Assembly (NCBI GenBank): GCA_035305285.1
Contig: DATGPD010000155.1
Span: forward strand, 1-25,491
Length of the DNA stretch: 25,491 bases
Reading direction: 5' to 3'
DNA from: Planctomycetota bacterium
GTDB lineage: Bacteria > Planctomycetota > UBA1135 > UBA2386
Made by a program: the position numbers and the translations under genes
The notes under the pieces: generated by a model
Database searches by the model: none
Told to the model about the DNA's origin: nothing
The model's input: the letters and a program-made list of their open reading frames with translations, nothing else
Part shown: piece by piece, positions 3,145 through 11,652 of the stretch
Layout of the letters: each line of letters starts with the position of its first letter
Numbering within the stretch: the stretch's first letter is position 1

Positions 3145-4182
3145 GTGGTGCAGTTCCAGGACTACTACGCCGTGCTCGGCGTCCCGCGCGACGCTTCCGC
3201 CGAGGACATCAAGAAGGCCTACCGCAAGCTCGCGATGCGGTGGCACCCCGACCGCCACCCGGAGAAGGAGCGCCCCAAGGCCGAGGCGGAGTTCAAGAAG
3301 ATCAGCGAGGCTTACGAGGTGCTCTCCGATCCGAACAAGCGCAAGCGCTACGACCAGCTCGGCGCGCGCTGGCAGGAGGGCGAGCAGTTCGCCGGCGACG
3401 CGGGCTGGCGGCAGGTCGATCCGGAGGAGTTCGCGCGCATGTTCGGCGGCGCGAGCGCGTTCTCGGACTTCTTCACCCGCTTCTTCGGCGACCAGATGGG
3501 GCGCGACGTGGGCTGGGGGCCGCGCCGGCACGCGCGCTACGCCGAGCGCGGCGCCGACGTGCGCGCCACGCTCGAGCTGACCGCGGACGAGGCGATCGCC
3601 GGCGGCAAGCGCGAGTTCTCGCTGACCGCCACGGGCCCGTGCGCGCGCTGCGGCGGCGTGGGCTTCCTCGGCGATCACGTCTGTCCGGCGTGCGCCGGGA
3701 TCGGCACGGTGCGCACCACGAAGACGGTCGCGCTGAAGATCCCCGAGGACGTGCGCGACGGGCTCACCGTGCGCCTGCGTGGGCTGGGCGAGCCGGGCAC
3801 CGACGGTGCCGAGCCCGGCGACCTGCTGCTGACGATCCAGTTGACGCCCGGCGAGGTCTACCGCGTGCGCGGCTCGGACGTGGAGGCGGACGTACCGGTC
3901 ACGCCGTGGGAGGCGCTGCACGGCACCCAGGTGGAGGTGCGGACCGCGCGCGGGGTCGCGACCGCGCGCGTGCCCGCCGGCAGCCGCGCCGGCAGCAAGC
4001 TCCGCCTGCGCGGCCAGGGCCTGGCGAACGCGGCCGGCGGGCACGGCGACTTCTACATCGTGCTCCGCTACGCCCTGCCCGAGCCGCTCAGCAGCCGGCA
4101 GCGCGAGCTGCTGGAGCAGATGGCGGCGGCCGGACCGGGGCGGGTGACCGGCGGCGCGCGCATCGACGGAGGCGGGTCATGA
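3145..4182 (+). CDS. cbpA: DnaJ-family chaperone, CbpA (curved DNA-binding protein)-like
   Basis: J-domain (QDYYAVLGV, WHPDRH), G/F-rich linker, C-terminal DnaJ_C region (GDLLL, VTPWEALHG, LRLRGQG); followed by a cbpM-like gene. Confidence 0.85.
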   Translation: MVQFQDYYAVLGVPRDASAEDIKKAYRKLAMRWHPDRHPEKERPKAEAEFKKISEAYEVLSDPNKRKRYDQLGARWQEGEQFAGDAGWRQVDPEEFARMFGGASAFSDFFTRFFGDQMGRDVGWGPRRHARYAERGADVRATLELTADEAIAGGKREFSLTATGPCARCGGVGFLGDHVCPACAGIGTVRTTKTVALKIPEDVRDGLTVRLRGLGEPGTDGAEPGDLLLTIQLTPGEVYRVRGSDVEADVPVTPWEALHGTQVEVRTARGVATARVPAGSRAGSKLRLRGQGLANAAGGHGDFYIVLRYALPEPLSSRQRELLEQMAAAGPGRVTGGARIDGGGS

Positions 4183-4424
4183 CCTCGGCCGAGGTGCGCT
4201 GGATCGCCTTCGAGGCGGTCGCGCGGATCTACCGGGTCGACGTGGAATGGTTGCTGCGTGCGGAGGACCTCGGCGTGCTGCCGAACGTCGAGCGGCGCGC
4301 CGGCACGGCGCTCCTGCCCGCCGACGACCTCGACCGGGTCGCGGCCGCGGTGCGCTGGCACCTGCACTTCGGCGTCGACCTCGACGTGATCGCCGCGTTG
4401 CTGAGCGAGGTGCCGCGGCGGTGA
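4179..4424 (+). CDS. Chaperone modulator CbpM-like small MerR-type protein
   Basis: 81 aa, ATGA overlap with cbpA. MTSAEVRWIAFEAVARIYRVDVEWL...DLDRVAAAVRWHLHFGVDLDVIAALL fits the CbpM/MerR_2 pattern and its usual gene context. Confidence 0.72.
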   Translation: MTSAEVRWIAFEAVARIYRVDVEWLLRAEDLGVLPNVERRAGTALLPADDLDRVAAAVRWHLHFGVDLDVIAALLSEVPRR

Positions 4425-4446: not shown

Positions 4447-5691
4447 CTAGAGGTCGAGCCCGTGGGCCGGCAGGTAGCGCGTGCGTACGCGCTTGCCGGA
4501 CGCGATGAACACCGCCTCGAACTGTTCGGGCGTGCTGCCCGGCCCGCTCCCGGTGAGCCAGGCGAGCAGGCGGCGCGCGGACGCGACGACCTCGGGGTCC
4601 TCGTCACGCGCGACCAGCGACACCAGGATCCCGACGCAGCGCTCGTCGCCCTGGCGCACGAGGCAGCGTGCCGCGAGCAGGCGCTCCTGCGGCCCCATCC
4701 CGGGCACACGTGCCACCAGCGCCTCGGGGTCGGCGGCGCCGTGCGCCTCGAGGCAGTGCAGCGCGAACACGCGGAGCGCCTCCGGCGCGAGGTCGTCGCT
4801 CGCGACCTTCCACACCGCGGTCGCGTGGTCGAGGACCTTCTCGTTGTGCACGAGGAACTCGAGTGCCGCGCGGCGAACCTCCTCGGCCCGGTTCTGCAGG
4901 CAGCTGACCGCCAGCTCGGCGTGGTCGTACTCGAGGTCGCGCGCGAGCGCGCGGAGCGCCTGCGCGGCGGCGCGCGGCTCGCCGTGGGTGACGAACACCA
5001 GCACGCGCTCGCGCAGCGCGGCGCTCGGCCGCTGCGGGAACGCGCGCACGGCCAGCTCACCCTCCTCGCGGTCGTCGGAGAGGAGCGAGCGCATCAGCAG
5101 GTCGTCCGGGATCGTCCCGCCGTCGCGCGCGATTGCGGCGAGCATGCCGAGGCGCGCGCCGCGGTCCTCGCTCTGCAGCAACTCCGCGATCTGGTCGGGG
5201 TCGATGGCGCGCAGGGCGTGTGCGACGCCGATCGCCGCGGCCCGGAGGCCGCCGCCACCGCCGCCGCCACCCCCGCCGCCGACGGCGATCGTGTACGGGA
5301 TCTCGCGCGCCTCGAGCACGCGCGCGCATTCGAGCAGAGCCTTGCGCTCGCGGCCGTCGGTCGTCTTGCGCAGCAGCGCACCGATCGCCTGCTCGAGCGC
5401 GGCGCGATCCTCGCTCGCGCGCAGCCGTTCGAGCAGGCGGGCGCGGTCGCCGGGATGCCACGTGCGCGCGAGCTGCACGACCGCGGCGCGCAGCCGTGCC
5501 TCGGCGGGCGGCGTCGGTTGCACGCGCTCGCGCACGACGATCTTCGGGCCGTTGAGCATCGCCGACCAGGCGAAGCCGGCCGCGGCGACCAGGCTGAACA
5601 CCATGCCGACCCGCGTCCAGCGCACCTGGTCGATGCCCCGGCGCGGCGCATCCGGCTGCGGCGGCGCCGCCTTCTGCCTGCGCGTCCTCAT
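4447..5691 (-). CDS. HEAT-repeat protein with N-terminal TM anchor (last gene of left pilin operon, D1)
   Basis: Basic N-terminus, TM segment VGMVFSLVAAAGFAWSAML, repeated helical units (EEVRRAALEFL, AAAQALRALA, VVASARRLL), Gly11 linker; ATGA-coupled to the upstream PilX-like gene. Confidence 0.75.
   Translation of the reverse strand: MRTRRQKAAPPQPDAPRRGIDQVRWTRVGMVFSLVAAAGFAWSAMLNGPKIVVRERVQPTPPAEARLRAAVVQLARTWHPGDRARLLERLRASEDRAALEQAIGALLRKTTDGRERKALLECARVLEAREIPYTIAVGGGGGGGGGGGLRAAAIGVAHALRAIDPDQIAELLQSEDRGARLGMLAAIARDGGTIPDDLLMRSLLSDDREEGELAVRAFPQRPSAALRERVLVFVTHGEPRAAAQALRALARDLEYDHAELAVSCLQNRAEEVRRAALEFLVHNEKVLDHATAVWKVASDDLAPEALRVFALHCLEAHGAADPEALVARVPGMGPQERLLAARCLVRQGDERCVGILVSLVARDEDPEVVASARRLLAWLTGSGPGSTPEQFEAVFIASGKRVRTRYLPAHGLDL
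5248..5280 (-). repeat. Poly-glycine coding tract, 11 GGN codons
   Basis: Minus strand reads GGC GGC GGG GGT GGC GGC GGC GGT GGC GGC GGC. Confidence 0.9.
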
Positions 5692-6773
5692 CGACTCAAC
5701 TCCTGCCAGCCGTTGAACGCGACGTACAGCCCGGCCGACGAGCGCGCGAGGTCGATCGCCGCCGAGGAGTACTGCAGGTCGAAGTTGCCGCGCAGGTCGG
5801 CGTAGGCGGCCGCCGGCCCCTGCACGAGCGCGCCGCGGACCACCGTGGAGCCGGTGCCGCTGTCGATGTTGCCGAGGACGATGATGATGCCGTCGAAGTA
5901 GAGGTTGCCGGTGAGCACCAGGTTGCCGGTGACCACCAGGATCCCCGCGCCGCGGCTGGTGCCGGTCAGCTTGAGGTCGCCGTTGCGGTACGTCAGGCGC
6001 GCATCGCCGATCGCCGCGTTGCCGAACTGCAGGTTGGAGTAGTGGCTGCTGGTGAGCACCGTGTCGGCCACGTTCTGCACGATGTTCGTGACGTCGGTGA
6101 GGTCGATCGGCGGCACGGTCCCGAGGCTCGGCGTGCCGCCCGGACCGAGGATGCGGTTGCCCTCGGCAGGGGTGAGCATTCCGAGCAGGTCGGTGAGGGT
6201 GCCCGGCTGGAAGATCGCGAGGCCGGGGACGTCACCCGAGCCGTCGATGTCGAAGCCGCTGTCCTGCGCCGAGCCGCCGATCCGGAAGTCGAGCGACGGG
6301 TTGCTGATCGCCATCGCGGCGCGCACGTCGGGCATCAACGGCACCGGGCCGAGGTACGCGGCGAGCCGGCGGGTCTGGTTGCGGTAGCGGCCGGTGACGA
6401 CGACCTGGAACACGTCCTCGTCGGGTTCGTCGGCGAAGCCGTCGTTGTCGTTGTCGTGCCCGTCGTAGAGCAGGTGCGTGGCGACCAGGCTCCAGCTCGT
6501 GTCGACCGCGAGGTTGCCGCTGTGCGTCGAGCCGTCGAGCAGCAGCCCGCGCCGGCCGAGGAAGATCGCGAAGTCGACGCCGGACTCGGCGGCGTGCAGG
6601 GCCTTCTCGCGCGCCCGTTCGAGCCCGAGCGCGTCGGTGCGCGACATCAGCACGCTGCTGAACACGCCGACCAGGAGCACCGCGGGCACGAGCGTGCCGA
6701 GCACCAGGACGAGCGCGAACCCGGACTGTTCGGCGGCCGGGTCGGGCGTGCGGCGCGGTTGCTGGGTCATCAT
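5688..6773 (-). CDS. PilX/GspK-like minor pilin with a large C-terminal domain (C1)
   Basis: Start ATG 6773 after SD GGAGGT. Class III leader ...EQSG|FALVLVL lacking Glu5 (a PilX/GspK trait), then AREKALHAAESGVD, which is PilX N-terminal-like. Gly-rich beta-repeat C-terminus. Confidence 0.8.
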   Translation of the reverse strand: MMTQQPRRTPDPAAEQSGFALVLVLGTLVPAVLLVGVFSSVLMSRTDALGLERAREKALHAAESGVDFAIFLGRRGLLLDGSTHSGNLAVDTSWSLVATHLLYDGHDNDNDGFADEPDEDVFQVVVTGRYRNQTRRLAAYLGPVPLMPDVRAAMAISNPSLDFRIGGSAQDSGFDIDGSGDVPGLAIFQPGTLTDLLGMLTPAEGNRILGPGGTPSLGTVPPIDLTDVTNIVQNVADTVLTSSHYSNLQFGNAAIGDARLTYRNGDLKLTGTSRGAGILVVTGNLVLTGNLYFDGIIIVLGNIDSGTGSTVVRGALVQGPAAAYADLRGNFDLQYSSAAIDLARSSAGLYVAFNGWQELSR

Positions 6774-6789
6774 CGTCACCTCCGTGGCG

Positions 6790-7419
6790 TCAGTTGTTGC
6801 GCAGGAACACCGAGCGCTGCAGCACGGCGCGCTCGACGCCGCCGTCACCGCCGCGGCGCGCCACGCCGATGCGGATCTGCAGCACGCGGCCCTCGAGCAT
6901 GAACTGGCAGTGCTCGACGTTCGGCAGGACGGCGACGCGCGTGCCTTCGTGCAGGAGCACGATCTGGCCCTCGTCGACCATCCCGTCGCCGTCGTCGTCG
7001 AGGTCGTTGTCGACCTCGCCCGGATCGAGCACGAAGTCGATCTCGCGCTGCGAGGTGCTGAGCCGCGCGTTCATCGACAGCAGGCCGGAGGCGGACAGGA
7101 AGCGCAGCCCCGGCCGCCACACCAGGTCGCTCGGCTCGATCCACTCGCCGACCGCCGACGCCAGGCCGAGCGCGACGTCGCTGGCCACCGCGCGCATGCG
7201 CAGGGTCGACATCTTGCAGCTCTGCGCGAACTCGGCGGTGGTCTGGAACGCGCGCTGCAACTGCGCCATGCACTGGCTGGACGTCGCGTTGCTGTCCACG
7301 GTCTTGCCGACCGTCTGGGTGAGCTGCACCGCGCCGAGCAGGAGCGGCAGCAGGAATGCGACGCCGAGCAGCAGCTCGAGCATCGACACGCCGGACTCCG
7401 CGTTCGTCCTGTCGCTCAC
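6790..7419 (-). CDS. PilW/GspJ-like minor pilin (B1)
   Basis: GTG start in a GTGA overlap; NAESG|VSMLELLLGVAFLL prepilin motif with Glu5; DDDGDGMVDE loop; ends LRNN. Confidence 0.8.
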   Translation of the reverse strand: MSDRTNAESGVSMLELLLGVAFLLPLLLGAVQLTQTVGKTVDSNATSSQCMAQLQRAFQTTAEFAQSCKMSTLRMRAVASDVALGLASAVGEWIEPSDLVWRPGLRFLSASGLLSMNARLSTSQREIDFVLDPGEVDNDLDDDGDGMVDEGQIVLLHEGTRVAVLPNVEHCQFMLEGRVLQIRIGVARRGGDGGVERAVLQRSVFLRNN

Positions 7420-7877
7420 GAGCGGCGCTCCCCGATCAGGCCGATGACCCTCTCGCGGCGGTTGCCCGCCGCGCCGCGCCACGCCACGGTGACCGTCACG
7501 CGATAGAGCACGGTCGATCCGCCGCTCGCATAGACCGCGACCTGGATCTCGCCGGGCAGGCCGTCGGGATCGCCGGGCTGGGCGGTCAGGCCGCCCGGCC
7601 CGCCGAGATGGTTCGGGACGTCGAAGCCGGTCCCGTGCAGCGAAGGGAGGTCGGCGAACGGCAGCCCGCGCAGCCGGGCGAACACGTCGGCGATCGCGTT
7701 GTTCGCGAGCGTCGTCTCATGGTTGACCGCGCGATGCGCGCTCTGCCGCACGCTGGTCGTCACCAGCGCGCCGCCGACGATCAGCGCCACCCCGCACGCC
7801 ATCATCAGGTCGAGCAGGATCGCGCCGCGTTCGTTCGCGGGCGTCTGCGGTCGCGATTCGGTAGGGACGGCGTCCAT
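7416..7877 (-). CDS. PilV/GspI-like minor pilin (A1)
   Basis: NERG|AILLDLMMACGVALIV hydrophobic helix and C-terminal LYRVTVTVAWR strand typical of PilV/GspI. Start uncertain (ATG 7877 or ATG 7919). Confidence 0.72.
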   Translation of the reverse strand: MDAVPTESRPQTPANERGAILLDLMMACGVALIVGGALVTTSVRQSAHRAVNHETTLANNAIADVFARLRGLPFADLPSLHGTGFDVPNHLGGPGGLTAQPGDPDGLPGEIQVAVYASGGSTVLYRVTVTVAWRGAAGNRRERVIGLIGERRS

Positions 7878-8224
7878 CTCCAGCGGCTCTATCGAGCGCC
7901 GGCCGTCGCGGACGTGCATCGTTCCTGGCGCGCGACCCGGGCCGCGGTCCGGACCGGCGGCGGCATGGCGGCTTCCCGCGCCCCGCTCCGCAGTCGCAGA
8001 GCGAGAGGATGCGCCGGCGCGGCAGCGCGCAGCACGAGGGTGCGGCTGCGCCGTCCCGCTCCGGACAGCTGTGGCCGGTCGGCACGCCCACGTGTCTCGT
8101 TCTGCGCCGGGCGCGTTCGCGCCGTCGGCACCGCGGGTTCGCCGCCGTGTCGCGCACGAGCGCACGGACGGGTGAGCCGGATCCCGTCACCCTTGCCGCG
8201 CTGCGGTCGATGAGGACAGACGAC

Positions 8225-8758
8225 ATGGGCTGCACAGGCCGCAAATCGTGGCGTGGCGCGCGCGGGCGGGACGAGCCGGCGCGCGCGGGCAGCGTGCGGA
8301 AGGACCTCGACCGCACGCGGGCCGCGGCGCACGCACGCGGCCGCGAGGCGGGCAGCTCGCTGGTCGAGGTCATGGTCGCGCTCGCCGCGAGCGCGGTGGT
8401 CATCGGCGCCCTCCTGAGCGGCGTGGTCGCGCTCAACGCGCAGCGCAAGCTGCGCGAGGAGCGCATCCTCGCGCAGATCGCCTGCCGCAACGTCCTCGAA
8501 GAACTGCGGCGGACGAGCATCGAGGACCTTCCTGCGGCGGACGGCCGCGGCTTCGCGGTGCCCGGGATCGGCGGCACGGGCAGCGGCCTCGCGTGCGTGC
8601 CCGGCGACCCGGACGGGCTGCCCGGCGAGGTGCGGGTCGTGCCCGAGCGCGTCTGGGGCGGCGAAGTCCTCTACCGGGTGACCGCCGTCGTCGAGTGGCG
8701 GCGGGGCCGCGGCTCGGCGCGCGCCCAACTGACCACATTGATGGGAAGGCGGCGATGA
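8225..8758 (+). CDS. PilV/GspI-like minor pilin (A2)
   Basis: REAG|SSLVEVMVALAASAVVIG motif, LYRVTAVVEWR; paralog of A1 (shared PGDPDGLPGE). Start uncertain (ATG 8225 with AGGA upstream, or ATG 8210, or GTG 8294). Confidence 0.78.
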   Translation: MGCTGRKSWRGARGRDEPARAGSVRKDLDRTRAAAHARGREAGSSLVEVMVALAASAVVIGALLSGVVALNAQRKLREERILAQIACRNVLEELRRTSIEDLPAADGRGFAVPGIGGTGSGLACVPGDPDGLPGEVRVVPERVWGGEVLYRVTAVVEWRRGRGSARAQLTTLMGRRR

Positions 8759-9384
8759 AGGCGGACGCCGGCCACGAAGCGGGAACGTCGCTGGTGGAGG
8801 TCGTGGTCGCGGCGTCGATCCTGCTCGTGGTCCTGGTCGCCGTGGGTTCGACCGCGGAGACCGCCAGCCGCACGATGCGGACCAACGACGAGCGCGCCGC
8901 GACCACCGAGCGCATGCTGCGCTTCCTGCAGCGCGTGGCGCCGATGACCCGGGCCGGCGTGCTGTCCACCTACCGGGTCGAGGCCACCGTCGCAGACCTG
9001 TCGGCGGATCGCGCGAGCGCGCCGGGCGAGTGGATCGAGCCCATCGACGGCGAGCCGCGCGCGGCGATCCGGTTCCAGGCGGCGGACGGCAACCTCGCGC
9101 TGCGCGCCGGGTCGCTGACCGCGCCGATCGTGCTCCGCTACGTGCGCGACCCAGCGGAGGCCACGGGCGCGCCCGGGATCGACGACGACGGCAACGGCCT
9201 GATCGACGACGGCCGCATCGTGCTCGTGCACCAGGGCGTGGAGACGACCGTGGCGACCGGGGTGGAGGAGTGCTCGTTCACGCTCGAGGGCGCGTCGCTG
9301 GTCGTGACCCTGCGGGCCGCGCGGCGCCGGTCGACCGACCCGCCGCTGCAGTTCGAACAGGTCCACGTGCTGCGCAACAACTGA
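8755..9384 (+). CDS. PilW/GspJ-like minor pilin (B2)
   Basis: ATGA overlap; HEAG|TSLVEVVVAASILLVVL; GEWIEP and DDDGNGLIDD shared with B1; ends LRNN. Confidence 0.82.
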   Translation: MKADAGHEAGTSLVEVVVAASILLVVLVAVGSTAETASRTMRTNDERAATTERMLRFLQRVAPMTRAGVLSTYRVEATVADLSADRASAPGEWIEPIDGEPRAAIRFQAADGNLALRAGSLTAPIVLRYVRDPAEATGAPGIDDDGNGLIDDGRIVLVHQGVETTVATGVEECSFTLEGASLVVTLRAARRRSTDPPLQFEQVHVLRNN

Positions 9385-9403
9385 TCGGAGGAGGAAGGCT
9401 GCG

Positions 9404-10498
9404 ATGGGGGACGCCAGGATCGTGCGGGGGACGCAGGACGGTGCGGCGCTGGTGATGCTGGTCGTCGTCCTCGTGCCGGTCGTGACCCTGTTCGGCGGCT
9501 TTGCGCTCGCGATGCACGCCCGCGACCTCCGTCTGGACGAGGACATCGCGCGCGAGCGCTGCTTCTGGATTGCCGAGGGCGGGATCGACGACGCGATCCA
9601 CCGCGCATCGGCCGGCCTGCTTCCGGCCATCGGCATGCTGTACGAACTGGACCTGGGCGGGGGCGCCACCTGCACGGTCAACGCGATCGCGCTCGGCGGC
9701 AACGGCATCGACGACGACGGCGACGGCATGGTCGACGAGGCGGACGAGGACCTGCTGGAGGTGCACAGCATCGGCCGCTACCGGCGCTGGCAGCGCGAGC
9801 TCGTGACCTGGCTCGGGCGCGTGCCGTTCCTCCCCGACCTCGGCGCGCCCGCGGTGGTCGCGAGCCCGAGCACCGACGTGGACCTGGGCGGCACGCCGCG
9901 GCTGGACGGCCGTGACCACGACCTCGACGGCAGCCCCGGCGATCCGGCCGAGGCGCGCGCCGGCCTCGCGATCATGACGCCGGGCACGGTCGCCGACCTA
10001 GCCGCGCGCCTGACCGGCGGTGAACCGGACGCGGTGCTCGGCGCGGGCGGCACGCCGAGCCTCGCCCAGGTGCCGTCCTTCGACGTCGTCGAGCTGGCGG
10101 CGCGCGTGCGCAACGTCGCCAACCTGGTGCTCACCAACACCACGTACGCCGACCTGCAGTTCGGCAACGCCGAGACCGGAACCGGCCTCGTCACCTTCCG
10201 CGAAGGCGACCTGCACCTGACCGGCAACAGCCGGGGCGCCGGGATCCTGGTGGTGACCGGGGACTTGGTGATGAGCGGCACGTGCCGGTTCGACGGCGTG
10301 ATCCTCGTGCTCGGTAGCCTGGAGAACGCCGGCGGCACGGCGCAGGTGTACGGCGCGGTGGTGCTGGGGCCGGGCGCGGGCAGCCTGCGCGCGGCCGGCA
10401 CCTTCGACCTGCGCTACAGCGTCGCGGCGACGCGGTTTGCCGACGGACTGGTCGGGCGTTACGCGACCTTCAACGGATGGCAGGAGCTGGCGCGCTGA
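9404..10498 (+). CDS. PilX/GspK-like minor pilin with a large C-terminal domain (C2)
   Basis: SD GGAGGAGG; TQDG|AALVMLVVVL without Glu5; ARERCFWIAEGGID; ends FNGWQELAR versus FNGWQELSR in C1. Confidence 0.82.
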   Translation: MGDARIVRGTQDGAALVMLVVVLVPVVTLFGGFALAMHARDLRLDEDIARERCFWIAEGGIDDAIHRASAGLLPAIGMLYELDLGGGATCTVNAIALGGNGIDDDGDGMVDEADEDLLEVHSIGRYRRWQRELVTWLGRVPFLPDLGAPAVVASPSTDVDLGGTPRLDGRDHDLDGSPGDPAEARAGLAIMTPGTVADLAARLTGGEPDAVLGAGGTPSLAQVPSFDVVELAARVRNVANLVLTNTTYADLQFGNAETGTGLVTFREGDLHLTGNSRGAGILVVTGDLVMSGTCRFDGVILVLGSLENAGGTAQVYGAVVLGPGAGSLRAAGTFDLRYSVAATRFADGLVGRYATFNGWQELAR

Positions 10499-11652
10499 TG
10501 GCGATGCGCCGGGCGGGAGCAGCGTGCGCGCTCGTCGCGCTCGCCGGGGCGTGCGCGCCGCGGCCGGCCCCGGCACCGGCGGCCCGCGAGGCCGGTACGC
10601 GGGTGGTGCGCGCGGTGCGCGAGCTGCGCGGGGCGATCTCGCCGCGCGCGCGGCGCAACGTGCTCGCGCGCCTGCGCGCGGACGCGGCGGAGTGGTCGGC
10701 CGCGGTCGGCTCGGTCCTGCGCAGCCCGCGGCATCCGGCGTTCGCCGAGGCGGCCGAACTGGCGCGCGAGTTGCCCGTGCCGGCGGCCGCCGAGGCGCTG
10801 CTGCGTCAGGCCGAGGACTCCGGCGCGCCGCACCGTGCGCTCGCGCTCCGCGCCGCGCACGCGATCGCGCCGCTGCCCGCGGAGGTGCTCGTGCCCTTCC
10901 TGTCGGAAGGGGACCCGGCGGTGTGCTGCGCCGCGCTGGCGGCGTTCGCCGGGCGGAGCGACGTGCCGTTCGCGATGGTCGCGCGGCTGCTCGACGCCGA
11001 CGACCCCGAAGTCGCCGCGGCGGCCGCGGCCGCGTTGCCGGCGGTCCTCGACCGCGAGCAGGTCGCGGTCCTGTGCCGGGTGCAGTTCGCGAGCGAGCCG
11101 GCTGCGGTGGCCGCGATCACCGAGCTGGGCAAACGGGCGCTGCCGCCGGAGCTGCTCGCGCGCTGGCTGCAGCGCCTGCCGGTGGAGACGCCTCCGGTGC
11201 AGCGGGCGATCCTGGGCGCGGCGCTCGCCCGGCCGCAGCGCATCCCGCGCGAGCCGCTGCTCGCGCTGGTGCGGGCGAGCGGCTCGGAGGAAGTGCGCGC
11301 GGCGGCGCTGCACGCGCTCCTCGCCGGGCGCGCGCTCGACGCGGTCGAGCTGCGCGCGCTGGCGGGCGCGGACGACGGCGCGGTGCGCCTGCTGTGCGCG
11401 GCGGGCCTCCTGGAGCTGGGCGAGCGCGACGGTGCGGTGCTGCTCCACCGCCTCGCGTTCCCGGGCGAGGAACAGCTCGACGGCCTCGCGGTCGCGGCGC
11501 GCCAGGCGCTCTCGGCCGCGGCCGACCTGCCGCTGCACCGCGGCGAAGCGGCGTTCGCGGCCTGGTGCCACGAGCCGGGGCCGCTGCGCGTGCGCGCCTC
11601 CCCGGTCGCGACGGTCGCCGGCGTGCTGCGTTCGTGCGTGCCGGATCCGTGA
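10498..11652 (+). CDS. HEAT-repeat probable lipoprotein (last gene of right pilin operon, D2)
   Basis: TGATG coupling to C2; MAMRRAGAACALVALAGAC lipobox-like signal (Cys19); helical repeats DPAVCCAALAA, DPEVAAAAAAAL, SEEVRAAALHAL. Confidence 0.75.
   Translation: MAMRRAGAACALVALAGACAPRPAPAPAAREAGTRVVRAVRELRGAISPRARRNVLARLRADAAEWSAAVGSVLRSPRHPAFAEAAELARELPVPAAAEALLRQAEDSGAPHRALALRAAHAIAPLPAEVLVPFLSEGDPAVCCAALAAFAGRSDVPFAMVARLLDADDPEVAAAAAAALPAVLDREQVAVLCRVQFASEPAAVAAITELGKRALPPELLARWLQRLPVETPPVQRAILGAALARPQRIPREPLLALVRASGSEEVRAAALHALLAGRALDAVELRALAGADDGAVRLLCAAGLLELGERDGAVLLHRLAFPGEEQLDGLAVAARQALSAAADLPLHRGEAAFAAWCHEPGPLRVRASPVATVAGVLRSCVPDP

Follow-up and report, generated by a model that had tools for sequence, protein, structure and literature searches.

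Two paralogous minor-pilin operons, each with a coupled HEAT-repeat gene, lie back to back in a Planctomycetota genome

Introduction

What is encoded by two similar sets of four genes that lie head to head in one bacterial genome, and how did they come to lie there? The question is raised by a 25,491-nt stretch of DNA, here called the window, which is contig C155 (DATGPD010000155.1) of a Planctomycetota metagenome-assembled genome (MAG; GCA_035305285.1, 3.3 Mb, 65% complete). Two operons, A1-B1-C1-D1 and A2-B2-C2-D2, diverge there from a common spacer. A preliminary description of the locus, made without database searches, had taken them for an old inverted duplication of three minor-pilin genes and a HEAT-repeat gene, serving a filament machine encoded elsewhere. 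Motifs and predicted folds support A, B and C as type IV pilin-like minor subunits in the order GspI-GspJ-GspK, and D, the HEAT-repeat protein, is encoded directly after the putative cap pilin C. We consider it fairly probable that the core minor pilins of each operon form a complex that primes a type IV filament and makes up its tip, with D docked on it. The two sets are old paralogues, and their adjacency is specific to the lineage.

A, B and C resemble minor pilins in GspI-J-K order

All three families carry a prepilin-like N-terminal motif. Gly-1 is present in 13 of 13 members of the A family, in which position +5 is Glu (11) or Asp (2). In the B family the motif is G/FTLVE (the slash follows Gly-1), with invariant Gly-1 and with Glu+5 in 15 of 15 members. 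The C family has G/FAL, and the four residues found there most often at +5 (Ala, Leu, Thr and Met) are all non-acidic; absence of an acidic residue at this position characterizes the terminal subunit, GspK/PilX (PMC13759059).

Curated hidden Markov models (HMMs) from Pfam and NCBIfam recognize little of this. Among the eight proteins the only one to pass a cut-off is A2, with N_methyl (21.5 bits, cut-off 21.2). A scores 23.4 bits with TIGR01707 (gspI) at a cut-off of 44.35, A2 being below it (E 6.5e-5), B reaches 19.3 bits of the required 64.85 with TIGR01711 (GspJ) and matches it over the N-terminal 60 residues only, and C scores 12.9 bits with NF037980 (GspK; cut-off 130). HMM searches had been proposed in the preliminary description as a check of pilin identity, and they were positive for N_methyl in A2 alone, the gspI, gspJ and GspK models staying below threshold. 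Sequence profiles built from each of the three families, when compared with PDB sequences, matched the N-terminal pilin helix and nothing else.

Predicted structures are more informative. The AlphaFold2 (AF2) model of B1 (predicted local distance difference test, pLDDT, 85.7) was compared with 48,161 PDB chains, and its best four matches are all of the GspJ class, namely TTHA1219 (Z 9.7), XcpW (9.3), EpsJ (8.4) and GspJ (7.6); the next, unrelated chain reaches only Z 5.5. By its modeled fold B is therefore GspJ/PilW-like. The structural neighbors of A in the ESM Atlas include PilV (TM 0.55) and PpdC (TM 0.57) among generic small pilins, and orthologues of A1 with 54–70% identity are present at three other loci (L004, L007 and L048). 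The AF2 model of C1 (pLDDT 88) consists of a helix (residues 13–74), a sheet (83–144), a solenoid (approximately 145–342) and a final strand (349–360) that returns to the pilin sheet. Its pilin part matches GspK (3ci0_K, Z 11.6) and XcpX (5vtm_X, Z 8.5), and residues 145–342 match ice-binding proteins (Z 13–14.7). The model lacks the alpha-helical insertion of GspK and has the beta-solenoid in its place. The best Foldseek match of C in the PDB is ComZ (6QVI, E 5.8e-4), with which C1 aligns over 265 residues at Z 9.6, a root-mean-square deviation of 11.6 and 13% identity. C1 also matches PilX_N proteins of the AlphaFold DB (E 1e-14), and the neighbors of C in this database and in the Atlas are PilX_N, TadG-like and DUF7305 proteins from many phyla.

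Thus, motifs and folds agree with the earlier assignment of A, B and C as minor pilins in GspI-J-K order, in which A is the putative GspI/PilV-like subunit. C is a GspK/PilX-like cap pilin, having a pilin fold, a non-acidic residue at +5 and the last place in this order. According to its model, moreover, C conforms to the solenoid PilX/ComZ type, in which the penultimate and the last pilin strand are separated by a beta-solenoid; such beta-solenoid cap pilins have been published (PMC6561018, PMC13759059).

Acidic loops of the DxDxDG type (DDDGDGxxDE) are invariant in the B and C families. They occupy residues 141–150 of B1 (window ~6970–7000) and 104–120 of C1 (~6410–6465), and their sequence suggests that they may be calcium sites.

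A HEAT-repeat protein is coupled to the cap pilin

D has a basic N-terminus, one hydrophobic segment, which is lipobox-like in D2, and HEAT-like repeats. D1 falls just below the cut-off of the HEAT_2 model (26.8 bits, E 6e-6, cut-off 27.7), and its structural neighbors in the Atlas are HEAT proteins (TM 0.5–0.68). By the positive-inside rule, the repeat domain would face the periplasm. Being all-helical and HEAT-like, D lacks the C-terminal beta-propeller, often joined by a vWA domain, by which the PilY1/PilC tip adhesins are recognized.

The D gene, detected by tblastn at most loci and by eye at one (L022), follows C wherever the context is readable, including the contexts of three D-family members taken from far down the ranking, and the two genes are often coupled through overlapping stop and start codons. 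At E<=1e-30 the family comprises approximately 199 clusters at 50% identity, and the single named one in the sample comes from Planctomycetota. The library searched has no publication that joins 'minor pilins' with 'HEAT repeat', and it yielded nothing useful on minor pilins or pseudopilins of Planctomycetes. The HEAT-repeat gene coupled to a cap pilin appears to be a new, undescribed element.

Binding of D was evaluated by a complex prediction with the soluble parts of A1, B1, C1 and D1, in which D was scored as the partner of the other chains. The scores of three runs were 0.83, 0.84 and 0.69; they fell to 0.00 and 0.00 with two unrelated proteins in the place of D, and to 0.38 with C replaced. 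The predicted contacts of D with A and C involve residues 72–80, 112, 114, 366–385 and 403–412 and take in the most conserved motifs of the family, W78/P80, the LAWLTG helix and the P408 tail. Conservation is modestly higher on the D side of the interface than in the rest of D (0.50 vs 0.43, p about 0.04). At the level of a structural model, these results support binding of D to A and C.

A run of 11 glycines in D1 (window 5249–5281) derives from a GGC/GCC-rich stretch. A poly-Gly run is found at the same place in one orthologue (L010), and there is none in two others (L009 and L023). This stretch draws many unrelated contig fragments, so that read depth is inflated there.

The two sets are old paralogues

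Gene-by-gene paralogy of the two operons had been proposed in the preliminary description. For three of the pairs it is borne out by BLASTP (A1/A2, 41% identity, E 4e-31; B1/B2, 35%, E 5e-37; C1/C2, 45%, E 7e-79), and all the shared motifs that had been quoted for these pairs were found. The fourth pair, D1/D2, has no significant pairwise similarity by BLASTP (E 21) and is recovered by profile: D2 scores 136.6 bits (E 3e-41) with a D-family HMM built without it, all of 500 shuffled D2 sequences score at or below -3 bits, and intermediate members of the family match both D1 and D2. The sequence profiles therefore identify D1 and D2 as diverged homologues.

Could the pair have arisen by duplication in place? 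An ancient inverted duplication at this locus, with both products kept and the head-to-head layout itself functional, perhaps as a means of switching from one tip to the other, would fit the shared gene order, the adjacency and the single 347-nt spacer. Local multiplication of such genes is also seen in distant Planctomycetota, one of which has two minor-pilin sets that are divergent, head to head and ~1.3 kb apart (L064, G103:C4) and another two sets in tandem (L068, G266:C14). However, in a maximum-likelihood (ML) tree of 73 C proteins, C1 belongs to a 13-member clade and C2 to a separate 4-member clade with P0060, P0062 and P0063, both supported at 100/100, and other clades lie between them. 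Moreover, other MAGs have an orthologue of C1 (66% identity) or of C2 (59%) in an operon that stands alone. In G001, a genome of the same genus, three copies lie on separate contigs: a set-1 orthologue, whose contig of 36.8 kb has no neighboring set 2, a set-2 remnant (C151, L049; 2100–3931), and a third, more distant set. The remnant, which lacks A and B and has a Kelch-repeat gene upstream, comprises the C-terminal 170 residues of a C2-like gene (66%) and a D2-like gene (45%). Two or three copies, again unlinked, are present in each of two other genomes. Separate clades, standalone orthologues and unlinked copies in the same-genus genome indicate that the two sets are old paralogues, belonging to separate branches of one Planctomycetota family, and that their adjacency is lineage-specific. 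Unlinked operons in relatives had been named in advance as evidence against an inverted duplication in place, and that idea, as put forward in the preliminary description, is supported neither by the tree nor by the relatives; we regard it as improbable, though the local clustering seen elsewhere leaves an ancient local origin a small chance.

The mirror image itself stands as far as gene order and junction are concerned. An assembly artefact, or chimeric junction, was considered and rejected since independent assemblies carry the same junction: at least six Logan contigs from different runs span A2, the 305-nt spacer (the length with the longer A1 described below) and A1, and contigs of three studies span the junction with 0 or 1 differences. 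At the DNA level the two operons have no mirror symmetry, and the spacer contains no recognizable shared control element, which speaks against both the duplication and the shared control region that had been proposed with it. The spacer has no sigma-70-like promoter matches, and neither it nor its surroundings contain inverted or direct repeats beyond the GC-rich background. The sole terminator-like site lies inside C1 and is at chance level. Overall, the back-to-back layout is real and is not conserved, nothing suggests a function for it, and it does not appear to matter.

Distribution of the operon and of the filament machinery

The A-B-C-D operon is patchy and has been seen in Planctomycetota only, where at least 12 MAGs carry it alone in unrelated neighborhoods. 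A C-family match is found in 12 of 41 relatives and in 7 of the 24 other genomes of the same family; at E<=1e-40, matches occur in 15 of 301 genomes that sample the phylum evenly. More distant members keep the A-B-C triad, sometimes in the order A-C-B (L066, L067 and L069), with D weak or undetected.

Outside the window, the same genome encodes PilB/PilT-type and several GspE-like ATPases (T2SSE), two secretins, a prepilin peptidase and PilM, as had been predicted of the filament machine, together with a major-pilin-like gene and another GspJ-like gene. As the cassette is patchy, pilM is universal (41 of 41 relatives) and the genome has other pilin and GspJ-like genes, the cassette is an accessory plug-in and not the sole primer. 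By the same token, with pilM in 41 of 41 relatives and the cassette in 12 of 41, co-occurrence gives no pointer to the machine that is served.

Partial and expanded copies were also observed. The window's genome encodes a third, partial solenoid protein (G000:C683, L003; 2–1093), after which comes a gene (1132–1203) whose product has a prepilin N_methyl motif. On the 8-Mb chromosome OZ245006.1 (L006/L013), a second copy at ~3.07 Mb consists of C and D only, with no A or B detected upstream, and lies between polyketide and non-ribosomal peptide synthase genes. Two genomes of the same order (G031 and G038) have eight or nine matches each to the solenoid part of C (model positions 98–352), several of them in tandem (e.g. 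G038:C62:14383-18024, G031:C24 and G031:C7), a case of extensive local multiplication among related solenoid proteins.

Proposed function and its alternatives

In the mechanism that we propose, the prepilin peptidase encoded elsewhere would cleave A, B and C after the conserved glycine. A and B keep the acidic residue at position 5; because C lacks this residue, it could only be the top subunit, and its beta-solenoid would project as a cap or adhesive head. D would be exported, either membrane-tethered or secreted, and dock on the globular portions of A and C. There it would either join the tip as its fourth component, standing in for PilY1, or hold the pre-assembled primer in the periplasm. 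Most likely, the two sets prime functionally different filaments on machinery encoded elsewhere. Assembly of the trimer, the role of D, the machine that is served and the functional difference between the sets are all parts that we infer. In a bolder form of the proposal, D would be a stoichiometric subunit, the fourth, of a tip and priming complex seen to date in Planctomycetota only. It would bind the GspI-like and solenoid-PilX-like subunits and replace PilY1, the adapter or the holder, which would make it a new class of accessory protein of type IV filaments, and the two sets would give one bacterium two differently tipped filaments; this we put forward tentatively, as a possibility that falls short of an even chance.

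Several points weigh against a tip complex with docked D. The curated GspI, GspJ and GspK models all stay far under their cut-offs, and since the PDB profiles see only the N-terminal helix, the class of A, B and C depends on predicted folds and motifs. The operon has no FimU/GspH-type adapter. Of 80 solved complexes, 58 attain the mark by which the complex scores were read, as do 2 of 110 mismatched pairs, but our job, with four chains and its own unpaired alignments, was unlike that calibration and scored D against the other chains only. On the A and C sides, the predicted interface is no more conserved than the rest of these proteins. A membrane-anchored D, moreover, could not travel on a filament tip. 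Finally, one manure metatranscriptome library yielded three short contigs identical to A1, B1 and C1 (window 6373–7860), with none for set 2 among the records listed; contigs in such a library are no proof of transcription, DNA carry-over being possible, and these are too weak to tell co-expression of the sets from exclusive expression.

Alternatively, D might stand outside the complex, an envelope protein that is merely transcribed together with it and acts elsewhere, for example as a chaperone or regulator; the complex score would then be an artefact of modeling. HEAT repeats are indeed generic scaffolds, the control in which D was kept and C replaced still reached 0.38, and A and C show no special conservation of the residues concerned. 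However, the adjacency of C and D is strict across a family of ~200 clusters wherever the context is readable, often with overlapping codons, both unrelated replacements of D scored nothing at all, and the predicted contacts fall on the motifs that D conserves best. Taken together, an independent D seems to us unlikely, though it deserves to be kept in view. Somewhat less likely still, in our judgment, is that the sets cap the short pseudopilus of a type II secretion system (T2SS) and not a surface pilus. A membrane-anchored D, keeping or positioning the tip in the periplasm, would suit a filament that is not extruded; GspJ and GspK of T2SS are among the best structural matches of B and of the pilin part of C, the weak HMM matches are to gspI, gspJ and GspK, and the genome is equipped with two secretins and with several GspE-like ATPases. 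Yet minor pilins of type IV pili and T2SS share their folds, so that such matches do not discriminate; neither gspG nor gspH nor any other gsp gene lies near the operons, and the helical insertion of GspK is replaced by a solenoid, as in ComZ and cyanobacterial PilX, both proteins of surface pili (PMC13759059). A complex that primes and tips a type IV filament remains the interpretation that we favor.

Gene features and surroundings

The coordinates, gene order and reading frames of the eight genes (Table 1) agree with the open reading frame (ORF) listing and with GC3 frame analysis, and so bear out the earlier gene map. Gene callers favor an ATG at 7919 as the start of A1, which lengthens the protein to 167 aa. 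The operon punctuation is conserved, as had been noted. A and B overlap by 4 nt in both operons (GTGA and ATGA); the gaps of 16 and 19 nt between B and C contain the Shine-Dalgarno-like GGAGG and GGAGGAGGA; C1 and D1 overlap by 4 nt, and C2 and D2 by 22 nt, or by 1 nt if an inner ATG is used. We rejected the possibility of pseudogenes because all eight frames are open and the positions conserved in the families are retained.

Table 1. Features of the two divergent operons (positions in the window)
Feature	Positions	Strand	Description
A1	7416..7877	minus	small, putatively GspI/PilV-like minor pilin, set 1, 153 aa; prepilin motif, Gly-1, Asp at +5
B1	6790..7419	minus	GspJ/PilW-like minor pilin by predicted fold, set 1, 209 aa; Gly-1/Glu+5 and AF2 fold
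C1	5688..6773	minus	GspK/PilX-like cap pilin, set 1, 361 aa; no Glu5, predicted inserted ice-binding-protein-like beta-solenoid
D1	4447..5691	minus	HEAT-repeat protein, set 1, 414 aa; basic N-terminus, one hydrophobic anchor/signal segment; translationally coupled to C1
Divergent spacer	7878..8224		347 nt (305 nt with the A1 start at 7919)
A2	8225..8758	plus	small, putatively GspI/PilV-like minor pilin, set 2, 177 aa as drawn
B2	8755..9384	plus	GspJ/PilW-like minor pilin, set 2, 209 aa; Gly-1/Glu+5, aligns across the whole B family
C2	9404..10498	plus	predicted solenoid-bearing GspK/PilX-like cap pilin, set 2, 364 aa
D2	10477..11652	plus	diverged HEAT-repeat protein, set 2, 391 aa; lipoprotein-like/signal N-terminus

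The window has a GC content of 73%. Its homologues are all in Planctomycetota MAGs, and its DNA was found in compost and soil metagenomes. Housekeeping genes flank the operons, with those for a dicarboxylate symporter, an amino-acid permease, CbpA/DnaJ and a small partner on the left and for 3-dehydroquinate synthase and others on the right. In line with the earlier survey, no FimU/GspH, PilY1, major pilin, ATPase or secretin is encoded among the window genes.

The CbpA/DnaJ gene and the small gene downstream of it (window 3145–4424) lie tail to tail with D1, and in another genome (G002) a DnaJ gene and an 88-aa gene are found ~8 kb downstream of the set-1 orthologue. A minor pilin of a motility pilus has been reported to be required for keeping DnaJ3 levels (PMC13759059). 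The position of the DnaJ gene beside D1 is probably a coincidence.

Comparison with known systems and implications

The closest parallel to these operons is found in another phylum. Cyanobacterial minor-pilin sets (the Com-type and EPS-type sets of Synechocystis; PMC13759059, 2026) likewise encode PilV-, PilW- and PilX-like pilins together. As in C, the PilX of these sets has no Glu5 and carries an ice-binding-protein-like beta-solenoid ahead of its final strand. Each genome has two such sets, which use common machinery to prime different filaments and do without PilY1, an arrangement to which we liken the operons described here. Sequence similarity to the Planctomycetota sets, however, is undetectable beyond the N-terminal helix, and the Planctomycetota operon has no FimT/FimU-type adapter. 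Nor is a HEAT-repeat gene coupled to a PilX-like gene part of that account, the sole match to 'heat' in its text (PMC13759059) being 'heatmap'. ComZ of Thermus thermophilus, studied with PilA2 (6QVI; PMC6561018), is, like C, a tip-associated pilin with a large beta-solenoid in the pilin fold, but it is larger (about 520 aa), serves DNA uptake and has no HEAT partner. The T2SS tip GspI-GspJ-GspK (3CI0; XcpVWX, 5VTM) shares the I-J-K order, with Glu5 in I and J and not in K. It differs in the alpha-helical insertion that GspK has where C has a predicted beta-solenoid and in the scores that curated HMMs expect, and the operons here lie outside any gsp cluster. In Myxococcus xanthus several core sets are present per genome, as here, and each can prime the same machine (PMC7541494). 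Those clusters include FimU and PilY1, both of which are absent here, where a HEAT-repeat protein follows the PilX-like gene. FimU/GspH and PilY1, by which the fimU-pilVWX-pilY1 clusters of M. xanthus and P. aeruginosa are recognized, are found in neither the window nor the orthologous operons.

The preliminary description had regarded the cassette as being of a kind that it did not recognize as described. This appears to hold for one element only. The I-J-K logic, a cap without Glu5 and a solenoid PilX are already described, and so are several primer sets per genome, since alternative core minor-pilin sets that feed one machine have been published (PMC13759059, PMC7541494); what appears to be undescribed is the HEAT-repeat fourth gene alone.

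Type IV filaments of Planctomycetota have barely been studied, and their minor pilins escape curated models. The operons add a putative I-J-K-like primer with a solenoid-bearing cap to the parts list of the pili of this phylum, and the presence of two old paralogous sets in one genome fits the recent view that one machine can serve several specialized filaments. If D binds as predicted, it would represent a new kind of accessory protein of the tip or priming complex, which would help to explain how primers are capped or held in lineages without PilY1.

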